Shown: piece after piece, positions 2,987 through 18,148 of the stretch
Numbering within the stretch: the stretch's first letter is position 1
Layout: every line of letters begins with the position of its first letter
Made by a program: the position numbers and the translations under genes
The notes under the pieces: generated by a model
Told to the model about the DNA's origin: nothing
The model's database searches: none
Seen by the model: the letters and a program-made list of their open reading frames with translations, nothing else
Origin: a virus
Taxonomy: Duplodnaviria > Heunggongvirae > Uroviricota > Caudoviricetes
Strand: one strand, 5' to 3'
IMG/VR virus record: IMGVR_UViG_2703718826_000002
Length of the DNA stretch: 18,148 nt

Positions 2987-3029
2987 AATGTAACATCGGC
3001 AGTCAAAAAACACAATTTATTAGAGCAAG
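2987..3029 (-). promoter_or_regulatory. C1-type operator (3013-3029, CTTGCTCTAATAAATTG on minus strand, 15/17) overlapping the -35 (TTGTGT) of a promoter with -10 TACATT
   Basis: 17-mer begins 2 nt after the terminase stop codon; 17-nt spacer between hexamers. Confidence 0.5.
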
Positions 3030-5281: not shown

Positions 5282-5323
5282 ATAATACCATCGATTAAAG
5301 AAATAGCAATACATTAGAGCAAT
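5282..5323 (-). promoter_or_regulatory. C1-type operator (5307-5323, ATTGCTCTAATGTATTG on minus strand, 14/17) overlapping promoter (-35 TTGCTA, -10 TATTAT)
   Basis: Begins immediately after the stop of the 347-aa gene and precedes the packaging genes; 16-nt spacer between hexamers. Confidence 0.45.
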
Positions 5324-7357: not shown

Positions 7358-8916
7358 ATGAAAATGACAAGTATTCAACAACGTGCAGAGCTTCATCGTC
7401 AAATCTGGCAAATTGCTAACGATGTCAGAGGTTCGGTCGATGGATGGGATTTTAAGCAATACGTTCTGGGCGCGCTTTTCTACCGTTTTATCAGCGAAAA
7501 TTTTTCCAGCTATATTGAAGCCGGTGATGACAGCATCTGTTATGCGAAACTGGATGACAGCGTAATTACTGATGACATTAAAGACGATGCCATCAAAACC
7601 AAAGGCTACTTCATCTACCCAAGTCAGCTTTTCTGCAACGTAGCTGCGAAAGCAAATACCAATGACAGACTGAACGCAGATTTAAACAGCATCTTCGTTG
7701 CTATCGAAAGTTCTGCTTACGGCTACCCTTCAGAAGCAGACATCAAAGGTTTGTTTGCTGATTTCGATACCACCAGTAACCGCCTGGGTAACACCGTTAA
7801 AGATAAAAATGCCCGCCTGGCTGCGGTTCTGAAAGGGGTTGAAGGGTTAAAACTTGGTGACTTCAACGAACATCAGATTGACCTGTTCGGTGATGCCTAT
7901 GAGTTCCTGATTTCTAACTATGCGGCAAATGCCGGTAAGTCAGGCGGTGAGTTCTTTACACCGCAGCACGTCTCCAAGCTGATTGCACAACTGGCTATGC
8001 ACGGGCAGACCAACGTTAACAAAATCTACGACCCGGCAGCGGGTTCCGGCTCACTGTTGTTGCAGGCTAAAAAGCAGTTTGATAACCATATCATCGAAGA
8101 AGGCTTTTTTGGTCAGGAAATCAACCATACAACCTATAACCTGGCACGTATGAACATGTTTTTGCACAACATCAACTACGACAAGTTTGATATCAAGCTG
8201 GGTAATACACTGACTGAGCCACACTTCAGAGATGAAAAACCGTTTGATGCCATCGTTTCTAACCCGCCGTATTCGGTGAAATGGATTGGCAGCGATGACC
8301 CGACGCTGATTAACGATGAACGTTTTGCCCCGGCTGGCGTTCTGGCCCCCAAATCCAAAGCTGACTTCGCCTTTGTACTACATGCGCTGAACTATCTTTC
8401 TGCCAAAGGTCGTGCTGCGATTGTTTGCTTCCCGGGTATTTTTTACCGTGGCGGCGCGGAGCAGAAAATCCGTCAGTATCTGGTTGATAATAACTATGTC
8501 GAAACCGTGATTTCACTGGCACCGAATCTGTTCTTTGGCACCACTATTGCCGTCAATATTCTGGTGCTGTCTAAACATAAAACGGATACCAAAGTTCAGT
8601 TTATTGATGCCAGCGAATTGTTCAAAAAAGAGACTAACAACAATATCCTGACCGATGCCCATATCGAACAGATTATGCAGGTATTTGCCGGCAAGGAAGA
8701 TGTTGCCCATCTGGCGAAATCTGTTGCGTTTGAGACTGTTGTCGCGAATGACTATAACCTGTCGGTGAGCAGTTATGTTGAAGCGAAAGATACTCGCGAA
8801 ATTATCGATATCGGTGAGCTGAATGCTGAGCTGAAAACCACGGTCAGCAAAATCGACCAGTTGCGCAAAGATATTGATGCGATTGTGGCTGAAATTGAAG
8901 GCTGCGAGGTGCAGAA

Positions 8917-8920
<4 letters not shown>
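7358..8920 (+). CDS. hsdM: Type I restriction-modification system, methyltransferase subunit HsdM (Type IC, EcoR124-family)
   Basis: 520 aa; AdoMet motif [10 protein letters not shown] and N6-adenine motif NPPY (AIVSNPPYS); N-terminus matches recalled EcoR124I HsdM. Stop overlaps hsdS start (ATGA). Confidence 0.95.
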
Positions 8921-10152
<1,232 letters not shown>

Positions 10153-10159
10153 TTGAGCA

Positions 10160-10273
10160 TTTTTACAGACCGGACCACCTTAACATCCGGTCAGTATATA
10201 GACTATTTTCTACACGCCGGAAGTCGCCCTTAACTCCCTTCCGGCCCTTGCCAGACGGCACAAAGGATGCGCT
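10160..10273 (+). promoter_or_regulatory. hsdS-hsdR intergenic region with two inverted repeats (GACCGGA...TCCGGTC; GCCGGAAG...CTTCCGGC); candidate hsdR promoter/regulatory region
   Basis: 121-bp gap, consistent with Type IC organisation in which hsdR has its own promoter; no strong sigma70 hexamers identified. Confidence 0.3.
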
Positions 10274-13200
10274 ATGACTCATCAAACACACACCATTGCT
10301 GAATCCAATAACTTTATCGTCCTTGATAAGTACATCAAAGCTGAGCAAACAGGCGACAGCTACCAGAGCGAATCGGACCTGGAACGTGAACTGATTCAGG
10401 ACCTGCGGAATCAGGGCTATGAATTTATATCCGTAAAATCACAGTCGGCGATGCTAGCCAATGTTCGGGAACAGCTTCAGAACCTCAATGGTGTGGTGTT
10501 TAATGACAGCGAGTGGCGGCGTTTCACGGAGCAGTATCTGGATAACCCGAGCGATGGCATTCTGGATAAGACCCGTAAAATCCATATCGACTATATTTGC
10601 GACTTTATTTTTGATGACGAGCGTCTTGAGAACATCTATTTGATAGATAAAAAGAATCTCATGCGCAATAAGGTGCAGATTATCCAGCAGTTTGAACAGA
10701 CGGGTTCTCATGCTAACCGTTATGACGTCACGATCCTGGTTAATGGTTTACCGCTGGTGCAAATCGAACTAAAAAAACGCGGGGTGGCGATTCGTGAGGC
10801 TTTCAACCAGATACATCGTTACAGTAAAGAGAGTTTTAACAGCGAAAATTCCCTGTTTAAGTATCTGCAGCTGTTCGTCATTTCCAACGGCACTGATACC
10901 CGTTATTTTGCCAACACCACAAAGCGCGATAAAAACAGTTTTGACTTCACCATGAACTGGGCTAAATCAGACAATACACTGATTAAAGACCTCAAAGACT
11001 TTACCGCTACCTTTTTCCAGAAACATACTCTGCTTAATGTTCTGGTGAACTACAGCGTTTTTGACAGCAGTCAGACACTACTGGTAATGCGACCGTACCA
11101 GATTGCCGCCACCGAGCGCATTCTGTGGAAAATTAAGAGTTCCTTTACAGCGAAGAACTGGTCAAAACCGGAAAGCGGTGGGTATATCTGGCACACTACC
11201 GGTTCTGGTAAAACCCTCACCAGCTTTAAAGCCGCGCGTCTGGCAACAGAGCTGGACTTTATTGATAAAGTCTTCTTTGTGGTCGACAGGAAAGACCTCG
11301 ATTACCAGACCATGAAGGAATATCAGCGTTTTTCGCCAGACAGCGTCAACGGCTCGGAAAATACCGCAGGTCTTAAACGAAATCTGGATAAGGACGATAA
11401 CAAAATTATCGTCACTACTATTCAGAAACTCAATAACCTGATGAAAGCAGAAAGCGATCTGCCTGTATATAATCAGCAAGTGGTGTTTATATTTGATGAA
11501 TGCCACCGCAGCCAGTTTGGAGAAGCGCAGAAAAACCTGAAGAAGAAATTCAAACGCTATTATCAGTTTGGTTTTACCGGCACCCCTATTTTCCCGGAAA
11601 ACGCCTTAGGCTCAGAAACAACCGCCAGCGTATTTGGTCGTGAATTGCATTCGTATGTAATTACCGATGCGATTCGTGACGAAAAAGTGCTCAAATTCAA
11701 GGTGGACTACAACGATGTGCGGCCACAGTTTAAGTCTTTAGAGACAGAAACTGACGAGAAAAAACTGAGTGCGGCTGAAAATCAGCAGGCGTTTCTTCAT
11801 CCCATGCGTATTCAGGAAATCACGCAATATATTCTGAATAATTTCCGCCAGAAAACCCACCGTACCTTCCCTGGCTCAAAAGGTTTTAATGCTATGTTGG
11901 CAGTGAGCAGCGTGGATGCCGCGAAAGCCTATTATGCGACGTTTAAACGGTTACAAGAAGAAGCCGCTAATAAATCGGCTACCTATAAACCGCTGCGTAT
12001 TGCGACAATCTTCTCCTTTGCCGCCAATGAAGAACAAAATGCCATTGGTGAAATTTCCGATGAAACTTTTGATACCAGCGCAATGGACAGCAGTGCTAAA
12101 GAGTTTCTGGACGCTGCAATTCGTGAATATAACAGCCATTTTAAAACTAACTTTAGCACCGACAGTAACGGTTTTCAGAACTACTATCGTGATTTAGCCC
12201 AGCGGGTTAAAAATCAGGATATCGATCTGCTAATTGTCGTGGGGATGTTTTTAACCGGCTTCGATGCTCCAACATTAAACACGCTATTCGTCGATAAAAA
12301 CTTGCGTTTTCACGGCCTGATGCAGGCATTCTCCCGCACCAACCGCATTTATGACGCGACTAAAACCTTCGGTAATATTGTCACGTTCCGGGATCTGGAA
12401 CGCTCAACCATTGATGCCATAACGCTGTTTGGTGACAAAAATACCAAAAATGTGGTTTTAGAAAAGAGTTATGCAGAGTATATGGAAGGCTTTACTGATG
12501 CTGCCACTGGTGAAGCTAAACGCGGCTTCATGACAGTAGTTTCAGAACTGGAACAACGGTTCCCTGACCCTACCAGTATTGAAAGTGAAAAAGAGAAGAA
12601 AGACTTCGTTAAACTGTTTGGCGAATACCTGCGTGCCGAGAACATCCTGCAAAACTATGATGAATTTGCCACGCTAAAAGCCCTGCAACAAATCGATCTT
12701 AGCGATCCTGTTGCGGTAGAAAAATTCAAAGCAGAACATTATGTGGATAATGAAAAGTTCGCTGAATTGCAAACAATTCGTCTCCCTGCTGATCGCAAGA
12801 TTCAGGATTATCGTTCTGCCTATAACGATATTCGCGACTGGCAGCGCCGTGAGAAAGAAGCTGAGAAAAAAGAGAAATCAACCACTGACTGGGATGACGT
12901 AGTTTTTGAGGTCGATTTGCTGAAGTCTCAGGAAATAAACCTGGATTATATCCTTGGACTGATTTTCGAACACAATAGACAAAATAAAGGCAAGGGCGAA
13001 ATGATCGAAGAGGTCAAACGCTTAATTCGTTCAAGCCTGGGGAACCGGGCGAAAGAGGGCCTGGTGGTCGATTTTATTCAGCAAACGAACCTGGATGATT
13101 TACCAGACAAAGCCAGTATCATTGAGGCATTCTTTACGTTTGCTCAACGCGAACAGCAACGTGAAGCAGAAGCATTGATAAAAGAAGAAAATCTCAATGA

Positions 13201-13390
13201 AGATGCAGCAAAACGCTATATTCGCACGTCTTTAAAACGCGAATACGCCACCGAAAATGGCACAGAATTAAACGAAACATTACCAAAACTTAGTCCGTTG
13301 AATCCGCAATATAAAACGAAAAAACAGGCAGTTTTCCAGAAAATCGTCTCGTTTATTGAGAAGTTTAAAGGCGTAGGCGGAAAAATATAG
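10274..13390 (+). CDS. hsdR: Type I R-M restriction subunit HsdR (Type IC; PD-(D/E)xK nuclease plus SF2 helicase motor)
   Basis: 1038 aa; nuclease motif VQIELKK, Walker A TGSGKT, DEAH-like FDECHRS; size matches recalled EcoR124I HsdR. Confidence 0.95.
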
Positions 13391-13406
13391 CCCAATTCGT
13401 ATTTTT

Positions 13407-13434
13407 CTTGCGGGTTCTTAATTAAACCCGCAAG
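13407..13434. terminator. hairpin (9-10-bp stem CTTGCGGGT/ACCCGCAAG) 17 nt after hsdR stop, without U-tract; possible terminator or RNA-stabilising stem
   Basis: Perfect inverted repeat; A-rich rather than U-rich 3' flank on either strand. Confidence 0.3.
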
Positions 13435-13469
13435 AGACCGTGGGGTTCCAAATGGCTAATATACTCCCC

Positions 13470-13638: not shown

Positions 13639-13655
13639 AGATTTATTAGAGCAAT
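13639..13655 (-). promoter_or_regulatory. C1-type operator (ATTGCTCTAATAAATCT on minus strand, 16/17 to consensus)
   Basis: Best consensus match in the window; immediately follows the TAA stop of the HAD gene; promoter-like TTGATT-N17-GAAAAT downstream. Confidence 0.55.
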
Positions 13656-14161
13656 TATTGTTGATGGAGAAGCGCGTTTCCATACTCCCTGACCATTAAC
13701 GTAAGTACGCCGTGACTCCTGAAAACACGCGCCACTTCAATCTTATCTTCCAGCGCGAACGCAATTTTACTTAGACCAATTTTCTTCAGGAGATCAATCT
13801 TTGCTGGACCGTCATTTCTGTCATCGGTGGCAGGACGCATAGATAGCAAAGGCTCAGCCCCATTTGTTACGTGCTTACGCAACCAGGCTCGTGTTTTATC
13901 CCTGGCTATCTCACAGCGCCCGGTTACAAACCAGAGGGTGTAAATGCCGGACAACTGGCGCACCATATCAATAACTGGAGTGATGGGAGCATCAGTGTCA
14001 CAGGCAAGGTTAAACTCGTTCCAGTGCTCTGTTAATGCACCTTTGCCAGGTGGTGGAAGTAAATGCAGCCTGTCTTCCGTTGCCTCTGATATCGTCCCAT
14101 CAATATCTACTATGACGATGTACGGACGTTCCTGGTGTGCGTGTTTATTGAAAATACTCAA
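13655..14161 (-). CDS. HAD-superfamily phosphatase (polynucleotide 3'-phosphatase / nucleotidase-like)
   Basis: 168 aa; HAD motif I VDIDGT, later conserved T/S, K and DD motifs; TTG start with GGAGG SD. Confidence 0.6.
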   Translation of the reverse strand: MSIFNKHAHQERPYIVIVDIDGTISEATEDRLHLLPPPGKGALTEHWNEFNLACDTDAPITPVIDMVRQLSGIYTLWFVTGRCEIARDKTRAWLRKHVTNGAEPLLSMRPATDDRNDGPAKIDLLKKIGLSKIAFALEDKIEVARVFRSHGVLTLMVREYGNALLHQQ

Positions 14162-14233: not shown

Positions 14234-14460
14234 TCAGCGAACGTAAATAGTGCCGCCGTTCTCTTTTTCCCATGCATCGCTACGTGCATAGCAAACATCG
14301 AGAAGTCTTCTTGCCGCAGTTTCCTCTACCCCAGCTTCGGCTTCGCGGAGAATACTGATGATCTGTTCGTCGGAAAAACGCTTCTTCATGGGGATGTCCT
14401 CATGTGGCTTATGAAGACATTACTAACATCGGGGTGTACTAATCAACGGGGAGCAGGTCA
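14234..14460 (-). mobile_element. IS3-family (IS407-like) left-end remnant: terminal repeat-like TGACCTGCTCCCC plus truncated orfA (51 codons)
   Basis: Minus strand from 14460 begins TGACCTGC...; ORF 14234-14389 starts MKKRFSDEQIISILREAEAG (typical IS3 OrfA N-terminus) with GAGGA SD, diverges, and stops after a conserved GG. Confidence 0.4.
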
Positions 14461-14889
14461 AACCATCGCGGTCATTTCATTGAGTTTTGTTTCCAGCTCA
14501 ATGCTTATACGTTCGGCATTATCAGCACGCTGGTTGGCGTCATGCGTCGCATCGTCGATCGCGTCCTGTTGCTGGCGTTTCAAATGTTCAATTTGCAGCT
14601 GAAGCTCTTCAATTTCTTTACCCTTCAGACCGAGATCCAACTGCATATTTTCAGCTGCATCTACCAGGGAGTTATGGCTATCAGCTTCTGCGTTATAAAC
14701 ATCAATAAGCTGTGCGTGAAGCATCTCCGCTGACTGAACCGCATTATCAAAAAAACGTGCTGTGAGGTCATCACAACTAACGCGGCGTTGCGCGGCCCGG
14801 ATGTTCTGGATAATGGCCGGGATACCGGCATTCAGGACATCAGGGATAGATACATTTTCGATTGATTGGTTTTGTGCTGAAGTGCTCAT
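14458..14889 (-). CDS. hypothetical coiled-coil protein (143 aa)
   Basis: Intact ORF with heptad-rich, Gln/Glu-rich C-terminal half; abuts the 72-aa ORF. Confidence 0.45.
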   Translation of the reverse strand: MSTSAQNQSIENVSIPDVLNAGIPAIIQNIRAAQRRVSCDDLTARFFDNAVQSAEMLHAQLIDVYNAEADSHNSLVDAAENMQLDLGLKGKEIEELQLQIEHLKRQQQDAIDDATHDANQRADNAERISIELETKLNEMTAMV

Positions 14890-15123: not shown

Positions 15124-15189
15124 ATTGCTCTAATAAAAAACGTGATGAGTGTACATCACGTTTTAAAAATATGGAATTATTAGAGCAAT
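15124..15189. promoter_or_regulatory. dual inverted C1-type operators (15124-15140 plus strand; 15173-15189 minus strand) flanking a perfect hairpin terminator (15140-15161)
   Basis: ATTGCTCTAATAAAAAA and revcomp ATTGCTCTAATAATTCC (each 14/17); central stem ACGTGATG/CATCACGT with A/T tracts on both sides. Confidence 0.55.
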
Positions 15190-15190
15190 A

Positions 15191-15892
15191 TTATTCTGAT
15201 TCTCGCTCAAAAAATGAGCTGATAAGGGGAAGCCAATCCTCTGACACTTCGCGAGGTCGCGGTTTGCCGTGGAAAAAGATTATTCGGCAGTCTTTTGGTA
15301 ATGCCCCATTCCCCCTGGAGTAACGCGCGCTCGCATATTTCGAACCAGGTTCCACAACATCGGCCTTGTAACTTACAAACCATCCCGGATACAGATCCTG
15401 AAATGCTGGTGTATCATCACCCATAACCTTCCGCAAAAACCCCTGCTCACCCCAGCATTCAGTAGTAACACAACGAGCAATCCAACCTTCCGGATCTTGC
15501 CAGAATGCACTCCAGATATGCGCTTTTACACTATTTGGTATCCACAGGGCACCGCTGCCACGATATTGTGGATGGTAAAAATCCCTAAGCATGGTGAAGC
15601 TGGTTGGTGGATTCTCTAGGATTGGGCGTATATCACCGGCAATAACCGTGTCCAAATCCAGATAGAACAGATCATCGGTTATATCCGGTCGGAACAACTC
15701 GATTTTCGCCCACCAGCCACGGCACTTTTGCCACTGGTTGATCAATGGGACAACTTTGACGCCAGGTACATGTAAACGCTTCAGGTCTGTCAGGCAAATA
15801 ATTTCATAGCCTTTTGGCAGTTGATTAACCAGCCACTGCACATCGGAAGCGTTATAGTCACCACCAGAGCGAAGAACTAAAGCAATCTTCAT
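15191..15892 (-). CDS. GT-A fold glycosyltransferase, family-8-like (DxD motif YLDLDTV; HxxGxxKP-like FFHGKPRP)
   Basis: 233 aa; N-terminal beta-strand KIALVL, DxD and C-terminal His/Lys motif resemble retaining GT8 enzymes (LgtC/RfaJ type). ATGA overlap with the upstream phosphatase gene. Confidence 0.5.
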
Positions 15893-16581
15893 GCTGCACC
15901 ATCACCTTTCACTTTCATCAATGTCAGGTTTCCGCAAAATACGGCACCTGTGTCGATATAATGCTGATTCCAGAATGTCTTCGGGCTTTTCACCGGAGTG
16001 TGACCAAAGATAAAACGATCTGCGCCAGAAATTTCGCCACCAATATCATCCATCGAATCACTGATACGCTCGCGCGCCCAGACAACGTTGAAAAGCGGCA
16101 CCTCCTTACCGAATTGATATTCATTATCCGGATAGTCGGCATGGGCTATAACGATAGTTTCTTGCCCGGTGTTCAACTCAATGATATAGGGCAGTCGTCT
16201 TACCAACTCCACCAGCGCCCTGGCTAATATTTCCTGATCAGCGTCCAGCATGAAGAACCATTGACCGCCATTCATTAGCCAGTTATTCACGTTGCCATCT
16301 GGACTTAACGCATCAATCATCAGCCGCTCATGGTTCCCCATCACTGCCCTGAACCAGGGCATCTGCAATAGTTCCAGACATTCGACATTTTCAGTACCGC
16401 GATCGATAAGGTCGCCGACCGATATCAGTAAATCCTGCGCCGGGTCAAAATCCACACGATGGAGTTCGGACATCAGTCTGGTGTAGCAACCATGCAGATC
16501 ACCAACAACCCAGACATTCCTGTATTTGGTACCGTCGATACGGTGATAAATTGTGGGTGCCATCATGTATTCTTCAGCCAT
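15889..16581 (-). CDS. PPP-family serine/threonine protein phosphatase (lambda ORF221 / PrpA-PrpB type)
   Basis: 230 aa; metallophosphoesterase motifs GDLHGC, GDLIDRG, GNHE, and C-terminal YIDTGAVF as in E. coli PrpA. Confidence 0.9.
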
Positions 16582-17189
16582 TCTTTAAGAGTCATCTGCG
16601 GAATACCTCCCATTTTCCCGCATGAAACAACGTCAATCTGTTCACGCGCAGACTGGAATAACAAAGGCAGGTGACTTAGATTTTTTGGCGTGCCGCCGGA
16701 GTGAACGCGTGGTTCTTGTGTAGCGTCAACGCCCACCAGGGCGACATGTTTGAATCCGATATGGAAAGCCAGGTTCAGAGCACCATATGCACTATTGCCG
16801 CTGGCAATTTCATTCTCATCTTCGCAAAGGCCGAAATGTGCGGACCAGCGCCACGCCCACCACTCGGGAGAATTCGTATTTTTTGGCTCCGTGCCGCGCT
16901 CAGCCACACGACGGAAGCACAGAACGCCATCTCTGACTTCACGTTCTTTAACATCGGGTAGTGCCATGCAATAACAAACACCACGGCGACGGCGGCCACG
17001 ACCAACGCGCCGCATATTGTCTGGCGATGGATCAAGGGTGAAAAAATAAGAAGCGCGGTTAAGCCAGTCGATGGCCCCATTGACCGCTATAATCGGCACT
17101 CCGCGCGGCGCAACAAAGTTTGCGGCGCTTGGGCCACTGCCGACGATAATAACGCGATCACTGCCTCTAAATTTATTCTTGGGAAACAT
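16563..17189 (-). CDS. GxGPS-motif Rossmann-like protein A, sialyltransferase/Maf/MptE-like (GT42/DUF115-like fold)
   Basis: 208 aa; VIIVGSGPS ... IIAVN ... [12 protein letters not shown]...VALVGVD pattern resembles CstII-type GNGPS ... SG..A..A..G....L.G.D motifs; paralogue of protein B. Confidence 0.5.
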
Positions 17190-17749
17190 TGAATTGCACT
17201 GCTCCTACTTGCATTCAAAATATGTAAATCTGCGTGTTTTTTGCGGGTATCCAGGAACTGCTGTTGCCATTTTGAAATAGACACCTGCGTTGGATTCCGT
17301 AGGGCTTGAGGGTGCGCGCCATGCCAATGAAGGCCGTTTTGCAGAGAACAGTCATAGCCGACTAATACCACTACTTCAGCCCCTGATTCAGCAGCCAGAC
17401 TGATAGCCTGCGCGCCGCTATTTACCCCTTCCGCCGGTCCACAATATCGCCTGTACTCCAACGAAAATGATTTCGCCGCCGCCAGGTTGGCTGTCACTTT
17501 GCGGAATCTCCCTCCCGGTATGGTGGATCCGTATTGCTTCCACCATGACAAATCACCGGCGTATAAGGCATAAATGTCATCGAACATCTGCCAGGAATTG
17601 TTAACCGCGATGATTGAACAGCCAGTTTTTTCTATAGCAGCACAGTCCTCACGAGTGAGTGACGGACCGCTACCGACACAAAAAACAGTCCTAGTCGCCC
17701 TGGGTGGTATGTTCATTCTCAGCTGCAAATTCAGCCTCCAGGCGAGCAT
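17087..17749 (-). CDS. GxGPS-motif Rossmann-like protein B, paralogue of A (sialyltransferase/Maf/MptE-like)
   Basis: 220 aa (possibly starting at internal MNIPP, 17716); VFCVGSGPS ... IIAVNN ... NSGAQAISLA...VVVLVGYD; 3' end overlaps the start of A by about 100 nt in another frame. Confidence 0.5.
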   Translation of the reverse strand: MLAWRLNLQLRMNIPPRATRTVFCVGSGPSLTREDCAAIEKTGCSIIAVNNSWQMFDDIYALYAGDLSWWKQYGSTIPGGRFRKVTANLAAAKSFSLEYRRYCGPAEGVNSGAQAISLAAESGAEVVVLVGYDCSLQNGLHWHGAHPQALRNPTQVSISKWQQQFLDTRKKHADLHILNASRSSAIQCFPRINLEAVIALLSSAVAQAPQTLLRRAECRL

Positions 17750-17889
17750 TCATTTCAGCGATTACCGGGTCCACTACAGCATCTGCTTCCTGTTCATTAC
17801 GCGGCATGATCGATGCCAGCGATTCATAATTAGCCTTGAATGACACGATTATTCTCCCGATGTTAATGTGCGCTATATCAAAGAGCACA

Positions 17890-17906
17890 TATGCACTAAT
17901 TAATTT
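17890..17906 (+). promoter_or_regulatory. weak C1-operator-like site (TATGCACTAATTAATTT, 13/17), same ATGCACTAAT variant as the site at 346-362
   Basis: Located in the intergenic region between the VRR-NUC gene and the downstream operon. Confidence 0.25.
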
Positions 17907-17912
17907 ATTATT

Positions 17913-18148
17913 TTAAGCAGCATACAACCACTTGTCGCCGTTCAATACATGCTCAATAGCCTCACCCTTTTTAAGGCTTATGTATTCCAGGATGGCGGTT
18001 ATCGCTTGTTCTGCACCATACGCAAGAACGACGTAGTAACCTTCCTCTCTAAGCCTGCGCATCCAGGCGATCTGCTCTTTCGTCGGGGCTTTACCATTTG
18101 GTTCTTTAAGCTCAATTCGCATGCCGTGATAGGTGATGCTGCCAACTT
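17913..18148 (-). CDS. VRR-NUC domain nuclease (PD-(D/E)xK), 5'-partial; gene continues beyond window end
   Basis: C-terminal motif IELKEPNGKAPTKEQIAWMRRLREEGYYV typical of VRR-NUC; reading frame remains open to position 18148. Confidence 0.55.
   Translation of the reverse strand, partial: VGSITYHGMRIELKEPNGKAPTKEQIAWMRRLREEGYYVVLAYGAEQAITAILEYISLKKGEAIEHVLNGDKWLYAA

Follow-up and report, generated by a model that had tools for sequence, protein, structure and literature searches.

The stretch of DNA considered here, 18,148 nucleotides long and referred to as the window, comes from IMG/VR virus record IMGVR_UViG_2703718826_000002 (Caudoviricetes) and contains a tightly packed set of minus-strand genes, pmgN to pmgQ, whose products are the subject of this report. 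Megablast comparisons place phages P1 and P7 at 98% nucleotide identity to this region (98.3% for P1) and several Escherichia coli IncY P1-like plasmids at 100%; the window is part of a P1-like phage-plasmid, one that is rearranged relative to P1 in having an internally deleted pmgS and a type I restriction-modification (R-M) system beyond pap. In the P1 reference the genes run pmgN-pmgO-pmgP-ppp-pmgQ, and in P7 they are named hdmA-hdmB-hdmC-ppp-hdmD, hdm standing for "head morphogenesis". P1 is among the most-used phages in genetics, and the only function published for its pmg genes is the placeholder "putative morphogenetic", a label under which they have stood since 2004. As developed below, pmgO, pmgP and pmgQ form the conserved core of a cassette that recurs among phages of Proteobacteria, and their products resemble glycosyltransferases that may act on a protein, most likely one of the virion.

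An earlier note on this DNA, made from the sequence alone, had described four overlapping minus-strand genes ending at a hairpin flanked by two inverted operators. The four open reading frames (ORFs), their overlaps and the hairpin all stand, and the operators correspond to Op86a and Op86b of P1, but the transcription unit comprises at least five genes, with pmgN in first position behind the operator Oppp (Op83) and the promoter PpmgN. The note had also taken the module to be one not previously characterised. This holds experimentally, essentiality screens being the only work on the function of pmgO, pmgP, ppp or pmgQ that turned up in the literature searched, but the module is not a new one, its genes being the annotated pmgN-pmgQ of P1.

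The genes are closely interleaved (Table 1). pmgO and pmgP, read in different frames, have 103 nt in common, an arrangement that recurs in phiNP, a lambdoid phage of Citrobacter rodentium; no slippery heptamer was seen across this overlap, and a programmed frameshift joining the two genes is unlikely. The annotated start of pmgO is probably too far upstream, because homologs begin near PmgO residue 12-20, and the true start probably lies near 17716. pmgP and ppp overlap by 19 nt as listed, or by an ATGA if ppp starts at 16566, which is likely because the ATG at that position matches the lambda enzyme and the call of the Prokaryotic Genome Annotation Pipeline (PGAP); ppp and pmgQ overlap by 4 nt, again as ATGA. 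Homologs of PmgN were found in P1-lineage loci only.

C1 operators lie both at the promoter and at the downstream boundary of the pmgN-pmgQ unit, as would be expected of a C1-controlled lytic operon. Where 0.07 operator-like sites would be expected in the window, a pattern search allowing up to three mismatches returned six, among them OpmgRa and OpmgRb (Op86a and Op86b), which flank the pmgR promoter in the P1 annotation. Oppp was missed by this search because it has four mismatches to the consensus used. Four further sites, with one to three mismatches to ATTGCTCTAATAAATTT, occupy 346-362, 3013-3029, 5307-5323 and 13639-13655, the last of which abuts the end of pap and corresponds to OpmgT (Op88) of P1. 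The hairpin downstream of pmgQ overlaps the annotated PpmgR promoter, and the whole inverted structure has a folding free energy (dG) of -26.9 kcal/mol and a z-score of -7.85; it was not reported by a simple terminator scan, and we infer that it terminates the pmgN-Q transcript. Because the P1 unit sits behind C1 operators, it should be silent in lysogens and switched on in lytic development, and a lysogenic-conversion role in P1 was therefore rejected.

Table 1. Genes and control elements of the pmgN-pmgQ region (window positions)
Feature	Position	Strand	Details
pmgN (P7 hdmA), small acidic protein, first gene	17691..17888	-	phrog_2350; P1 form 51 aa, GTG at 17846
pmgO (P7 hdmB; B of the earlier note), putative glycosyltransferase of MptE-like/GT42 fold	17087..17749	-	220 aa; phrog_4603, E 4e-74
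pmgP (P7 hdmC; A of the earlier note), putative glycosyltransferase of Maf/GT42/MptE fold, most conserved component	16563..17189	-	208 aa
ppp, predicted lambda-type PPP Ser/Thr phosphatase	15889..16581	-	230 aa; probable start 16566
pmgQ (P7 hdmD), predicted GT-A fold, GT8-like retaining-type glycosyltransferase	15191..15892	-	233 aa
C1 operator Oppp (formerly Op83), upstream of pmgN	17890..17906	+	P1 annotation transferred by 98% identity; sequence read
sigma-70 promoter-like site (P1 PpmgN region)	17910..17945	-	consensus match GCGACA-17-TAAAAT at 17938..17910; PpmgN annotated at the equivalent P1 position
C1 operator OpmgRa (Op86a)	15173..15189	-	P1 annotation and pattern search
C1 operator OpmgRb (Op86b), inverted relative to Op86a	15124..15140	+	P1 annotation and pattern search
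Hairpin, 11-bp stem and 6-nt loop, then T-run (15135-15140)	15137..15164	-	putative intrinsic terminator of the pmgN-Q transcript

Families and folds of the encoded proteins

The earlier note had proposed that A and B are paralogs sharing a GxGPS motif and a likeness to sialyltransferases, Maf and MptE, that the third gene encodes a PPP phosphatase, and that the fourth is GT8-like; each of these assignments is borne out by the comparisons that follow. PmgO and PmgP both carry GSGPS near the N-terminus. By BLASTP the two show no apparent relation beyond that region, but hhalign comparison of their families, made without the O-P fusion protein P0169, relates them at 98% probability (E 1e-13) over 162 columns, and on this profile evidence they appear to be distant paralogs. 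In three dimensions both share the MptE-like/Maf/GT42/WaaZ fold, and the best structural match of PmgP is the protein glycosyltransferase Maf. Invariant motifs in the PmgO family are GPSL, N50, D66, NSG, GYDCS and HWHG, and the PmgO profile matches the GT42 enzyme Cst-II weakly (E 0.2) and colinearly with two nucleotide-binding motifs (GxGPS and SG...GxD). Two family members, P0169 (44.6) and P0335 (44.1), pass the gathering cutoff of 34.6 bits for PF01973, a family that also contains Maf glycosyltransferases and to which WaaZ of E. coli has a match; among the precomputed Pfam matches of P0169 is a "faint" one to PF27901 (WaaZ_KDO_III). Against PDB sequences, single PmgO and PmgP sequences gave only noise and the PmgP family profile gave no match. 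Re-annotations derived from PHROG already label pmgO "alpha-2,3-sialyltransferase" and pmgQ "glycosyltransferase".

These proteins depart from their characterised relatives in size and in genomic company. The Maf flagellin enzymes (Magnetospirillum Maf, PDB 5MU5), to which sequence identity is 19%, have ~600 aa and carry additional substrate-binding domains, while PmgP and PmgO consist of a catalytic core of ~200 aa. Maf-type enzymes in that multidomain sense go with nonulosonic-acid (Pse/Leg) and flagellin genes, whereas the neighbours of the cassette are phage head, lysis or methyltransferase genes; no Pse/Leg synthesis genes were seen among annotated cassette neighbours, for which no systematic scan was made. 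The GT42 enzymes Cst-I and Cst-II and E. coli WaaZ, which we take to belong to GT73, have the fold in common with PmgO and PmgP and act on lipo-oligosaccharides. WaaZ adds Kdo-III (Kdo, 3-deoxy-D-manno-oct-2-ulosonic acid) to the core of lipopolysaccharide (LPS) and provides a precedent for cytidine monophosphate (CMP)-Kdo as donor.

PmgQ is predicted, from its structural model and its sequence profile, to be a GT-A-fold, GT8-like enzyme. The AlphaFold (AF2) model has a pLDDT (predicted local distance difference test) of 95.5, and Foldseek places it among GT8 enzymes, which make up nearly all of its 50 best PDB matches (E 1.6e-8 to 1.5e-6; template-modelling (TM) scores 0.46-0.60); these matches include Skp1 alpha-galactosyltransferase (alpha-GalT), glycogenin, GlyE, LgtC, the GT8 domain of WbbM and, from outside GT8, the catalytic domain of GT24 UGGT. 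A profile built from 62 homologs retrieves Skp1 alpha-GalT (E 5.7e-8) and glycogenin (E 1.4e-5) from the PDB, WaaJ aligns with the PmgQ family at E 3e-4, and the single sequence gives a marginal GT8 match among PDB sequences (E 0.07). D79-L80-D81 is invariant, and H208, G209, P211 and P213 (within FFHGKPRP) are at least 90% conserved; these motifs align with the DxD and the HF/YxGxxKPW (HxxGxxKPW) of the GT8 enzymes glycogenin and WaaJ. With Skp1 alpha-GalT, glycogenin, GlyE, LgtC and WaaJ, the compact PmgQ thus has in common the GT-A fold, the DxD motif and a C-terminal His-Gly-x-Lys-Pro, at ~14-16% identity. Because no Pfam family is matched at E<=0.1, including the Glyco_transf_8 model, PmgQ is called GT8-like and is not filed as a member of GT8.

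A lone PmgQ homolog (35% identity) is found in the lambda-like phage Chlobot (L174:5001-5720), beside int/xis and opposite the tail-fibre genes. This is a classic lysogenic-conversion position, and it suggests that a GT8-like enzyme can modify a different acceptor when PmgO and PmgP are lacking.

Ppp aligns over its full length with the lambda phosphatase NinI (1G5B; E 7e-95), scores 59.2 bits against Pfam Metallophos (PF00149; cutoff 21.5), and has intact GDLHG, GDLIDRG and GNHE motifs, that is, all of the PPP metal-binding motifs; by domain and motifs it is assigned to the lambda-type PPP-family phosphatases. The two enzymes differ in their setting, NinI being encoded in the nin region of lambda and Ppp instead within a putative glycosyltransferase cassette.

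Conservation and genomic placement of the cassette

Loci were gathered from viral contigs, from genomes in GTDB, from annotated phages and by individual look-ups, and were scanned with hidden Markov models (HMMs) for PmgO, PmgP, PmgQ and Ppp; an exhaustive search yielded 637 PmgP-family representatives. Wherever a locus continues beyond pmgP, it contains a PmgQ homolog no more than 1.3 kb away. This linkage holds in ~28 distinct lineages, among them phiNP, the 111-kb coliphage EP_H11, jumbo phages of Xanthomonas and Stenotrophomonas, the jumbo phage XacN1 and prophages of Pseudomonas, Ochrobactrum, Martelella and Polycyclovorans; all identifiable hosts of the cassette are Proteobacteria. pmgO usually precedes pmgP and is absent in ~7 lineages. 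The same partners are also joined in natural fusions of the O-P (P0169), P-Q (P0297, P0367) and Q-P (P0378) types, and others include a methyltransferase (Q-P-methyltransferase, P0346; methyltransferase-P, P0385). The O-P fusion, from a metagenomic phage, is a single protein of 376 aa (L177:8001-9131).

Between pmgP and pmgQ lies a slot whose content varies. Outside the P1 lineage it may hold class I S-adenosylmethionine (SAM) methyltransferases, FkbM methyltransferases or a GT4-like gene, in one locus also a weakly GT2-like one; the PmgQ of XacN1 carries a fused TylF-type O-methyltransferase. A 194-aa slot protein labelled "DADS" (L106, L109, L120) was left unclassified and is not counted as a glycosyltransferase, having an hhalign E value of 0.044 and no Pfam, NCBIfam or PDB match. 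pmgO, pmgP and pmgQ are the conserved core, and the slot holds swappable tailoring genes; since these include methyltransferases and glycosyltransferases, the anatomy is that of a glycan-assembly cassette and not that of a fixed phosphatase-glycosyltransferase module.

The phosphatase gene illustrates the same point. ppp adjoins pmgO, pmgP and pmgQ only in P1-lineage elements and is absent from the cassettes of phiNP, EP_H11, XacN1, ~20 metagenomic or prophage loci and even the P1-like Cronobacter phage JK004, where the three core genes are contiguous; conversely, phage D6 carries a ppp ortholog among nin-like genes and lacks pmgO, pmgP and pmgQ. Ppp is a lineage-specific insertion in the variable slot and not an obligate partner. 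The earlier note had treated the four genes as one functional unit that should co-occur in related genomes; co-occurrence is strong for PmgO, PmgP and PmgQ, but Ppp fails that test, and with it the idea of a four-gene functional unit. Ppp should be studied apart from the cassette.

Within phage genomes the cassette usually sits among the head genes. In at least seven lineages (L004/L122, L101, L103, L105, L118, L148, L178) it is bounded on one side by the gene for the major head protein and on the other by adaptor, head-closure or neck genes; in four others (L089, L098, L109, L119) it follows portal or minor-head genes, and in phiNP it lies just before terS. In Pseudomonas phage D3 a lone PmgO homolog follows the capsid gene. 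The jumbo phages with the cassette appear to be strictly lytic.

Two observations bear on possible virion components. PmgO homologs are labelled "structural protein" in PAJU2 (ORF010, L180:4974-5543) and in Klebsiella phage Eowyn (LR881104, 2336-2872); these are record labels only, and if they rest on virion proteomics, the PmgO paralog may be virion-associated. In phiNP, a 213-aa protein of phrog_1924 ("minor tail protein") is encoded directly after pmgQ and before terS (L086:7287-7928); it has no Pfam or NCBIfam match and may be either an additional part of the cassette or a possible acceptor.

The genes themselves are already known, and the cassette relates to phage-encoded glycosylation systems. 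In the literature searched we found no description of pmgO, pmgP and pmgQ as a conserved, fusion-linked unit, of the variable tailoring slot, of the preference for head clusters, of the dissociation of Ppp from the cassette, or of the Maf/WaaZ connection that suggests an ulosonic-acid donor.

Candidate roles of the cassette

The reading we favour, at a probability of roughly 0.4, is that pmgO-P-Q is a C1-repressed, lytic-cycle, glycan-building cassette, most likely decorating a virion protein, with Ppp as a passenger. PmgP and PmgO would be minimal, catalytic-core-only enzymes of MptE fold that transfer a CMP-activated ulosonic acid. The donor would most plausibly be host CMP-Kdo, a universal donor, which is favoured because no donor-synthesis genes were seen beside the inspected cassettes and because the identifiable hosts are all Proteobacteria. 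PmgQ would be a metal-dependent (DxD), retaining hexosyltransferase using a uridine diphosphate (UDP)-hexose. Together, and elsewhere with methyltransferases or additional glycosyltransferases from the slot, these enzymes would work in the cytoplasm of the lytically infected cell and build a short, variable glycan, most likely on a head or neck protein of the phage. Ppp was inserted into the slot in the P1 lineage, where its gene is translationally coupled to its neighbours. A virion acceptor is favoured because of the head-cluster position, the lytic-only expression predicted for P1, the occurrence of the cassette in jumbo phages that appear to be lytic, and the fact that the nearest relatives of solved structure act on proteins (Maf for PmgP; Skp1 alpha-GalT, glycogenin and GlyE for PmgQ). 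The fullest form of the proposal, in which a cassette of proteobacterial phages draws on host CMP-Kdo and O-glycosylates virion proteins by means of minimal Maf/WaaZ-like enzymes, a GT8-like enzyme and swappable methyltransferases, the glycan being acidic and containing an ulosonic acid, is unlikely to be right in all its parts; were it true, phages of Gram-negative bacteria, P1 included, would have yielded their first virion glycosylation system, and Kdo a new, protein-directed use.

The cassette would then be the counterpart, in proteobacterial phages, of a system of the mycobacteriophages, whose glycosyltransferases reportedly decorate capsid and tail proteins with the use of host nucleotide sugars, and whose virion glycosylation is said to be dispensable in the laboratory and to produce variable glycans. 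The likeness has its limits: glycosylation has been demonstrated there, whereas here it is proposed from genes and position, and the mycobacteriophage system involves other enzyme families, another host phylum and another genomic placement.

Several findings weigh against virion decoration. The P1 proteins themselves fall below the PF01973 cutoff, at 23.4 bits for PmgO and 20.9 bits for PmgP, hhalign comparisons of E. coli WaaZ with PmgO and PmgP are weak (E 1.7e-3 and 2e-3, 14-16% probability), and pyrophosphokinases (MptE, TPK) are likewise found among proteins of the MptE-like fold. The strongest objection is that P1 and HK97-like prophages, despite their unrelated capsid proteins, have PmgP proteins of 55-60% identity, a pattern more in keeping with an acceptor conserved among hosts, Kdo2-lipid A for example, than with one peculiar to each phage. 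Both enzyme types have counterparts in E. coli LPS-core synthesis (WaaZ; the GT8 enzymes WaaJ and WaaO), and the lone PmgQ homolog of Chlobot occupies an int-adjacent site of the kind used by morons; a position within the head operon may likewise do no more than provide late expression, as it does for a moron. Published deletions and CRISPR interference (CRISPRi) of pmgO, pmgP, ppp and pmgQ gave no plaque or antirestriction phenotype. Finally, the string "glycos" is absent from the main text of the paper on the P1 virion proteome, and no glycosylation of P1 virions has been reported.

The main rival reading has the cassette remodel LPS, a WaaZ-like enzyme adding an extra Kdo to the Kdo2-lipid A inner core, which is conserved universally, and the GT8-like enzyme, with methyltransferases in other phages, extending it, such that the core is truncated or masked and superinfecting phages and progeny avoid the infected cell or its debris. 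We regard this as somewhat unlikely, while recognising that it draws on the WaaZ_KDO_III match of the O-P fusion, on the MptE-like fold of WaaZ, on the LPS-core glucosyltransferases of E. coli within GT8 and the alignment of WaaJ with the PmgQ family, on the Chlobot gene at its typical lysogenic-conversion site, and on the conservation of PmgP across phages of very different hosts, which fits a universal acceptor. The receptor of P1 is moreover the LPS core, and overexpression of waaZ truncates the outer core. Set against these points, the P1 unit is C1-repressed and would be off in lysogens, most prophages have the cassette inside the late head operon, which leaves little time to replace surface LPS, and the cassette is present in the apparently strictly lytic jumbo phages. 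The enzymes, too, point elsewhere, the best matches of PmgQ being protein-glycan GT8s and not LgtC or Waa enzymes, and that of PmgP being Maf. The conservation of PmgP across hosts would also suit a host-takeover or anti-defence function, which the earlier note had raised, in which the enzymes modify either a conserved protein of the host or a small molecule or nucleotide, and Ppp clears Ser/Thr phosphates. Lytic-only expression, the ATGA coupling of ppp to both neighbours and the nucleotide-binding character of all three folds agree with such a role, but Ppp and the O-P-Q genes dissociate in both directions (ppp alone in D6; JK004 and all non-P1 cassettes without it), the accessory genes are of glycan-tailoring and not signalling-nucleotide types, PADLOC gave no hits and antirestriction is unchanged in deletion mutants; the suggestion thus gained no support here and is quite unlikely.

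The pyrophosphokinases of the MptE-like fold raise a different prospect, namely that PmgO and PmgP are MptE/TPK-like enzymes acting on a small molecule and that PmgQ works independently. The fold by itself would allow this, but the obligate linkage and fusion with a GT8-like glycosyltransferase and with sugar-type methyltransferases, the colinearity of the GPS and SG..GxD motifs with those of Cst-II, and the Maf enzymes that PF01973 is generally known to hold make it improbable. Even less can be said for the original annotation, under which the products of pmgO, pmgP, ppp and pmgQ are morphogenetic proteins that assemble or form part of the head: the names pmg and hdm, the head-cluster position and the label of PAJU2 ORF010 speak for it, but all four genes are dispensable for plaque formation and the proteins have enzyme folds with invariant motifs of catalytic type, and we consider it very improbable. 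Glycosylation of DNA was also considered and set aside, because P1 is not known to have hydroxymethylated bases and because the cassette is not linked to base-modification genes.

The linkage and fusions of the core genes, the swappable tailoring genes and the usual head-cluster position turn a placeholder label into a concrete, testable hypothesis: in phages of Gram-negative bacteria the cassette glycosylates some protein, in all likelihood one of the virion, or else the LPS core. If virions are glycosylated, this would bear on immunogenicity and clearance in phage therapy, on interactions with receptors and defence systems, and on P1 and phagemid delivery vehicles.

Other features of the window

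At lower window coordinates than the cassette, pmgS is disrupted (14329-14889): where the P1 gene has a 732-bp internal segment, the window has 124 bp (14329-14452), and what remains is an N-terminal ORF of 143 aa (14458-14889). A minus-strand ORF (14234-14389) starts within the replacement segment and begins MKKRFSDEQIISILREAEAG, which we take to resemble the N-terminus of an IS3-family OrfA; if this likeness holds, it suggests that the deletion was mediated by an insertion sequence (IS). At the other end of the cassette, the C-terminal part of PmgM (17913-18122, minus strand) matches PHROGs for Holliday junction resolvases or endonucleases (phrog_5702, E 5e-19); a match to the end of the Pfam VRR-NUC domain is weak and sub-threshold, and the label "putative morphogenetic" is doubtful for this protein as well. 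Pap (13655-14161, minus strand), the "acid phosphatase" of P1, matches PF25109, the HAD phosphatase domain of polynucleotide kinase-phosphatase, with 44 bits and belongs to phrog_415; its true activity may be that of a nucleic-acid 3'-phosphatase instead.

The plus strand of the region 7358-13466 encodes a complete type I R-M system, comprising hsdM (7358-8920), hsdS (8917-10152) and hsdR (10274-13390); this system is placed exactly where homology to P1 ends (13466). At this point the P1 annotation records a remnant, "sequence downstream of the EcoDXXI / R124 hsd locus", and the plasmid may therefore carry ancestral or reacquired R-M cargo.

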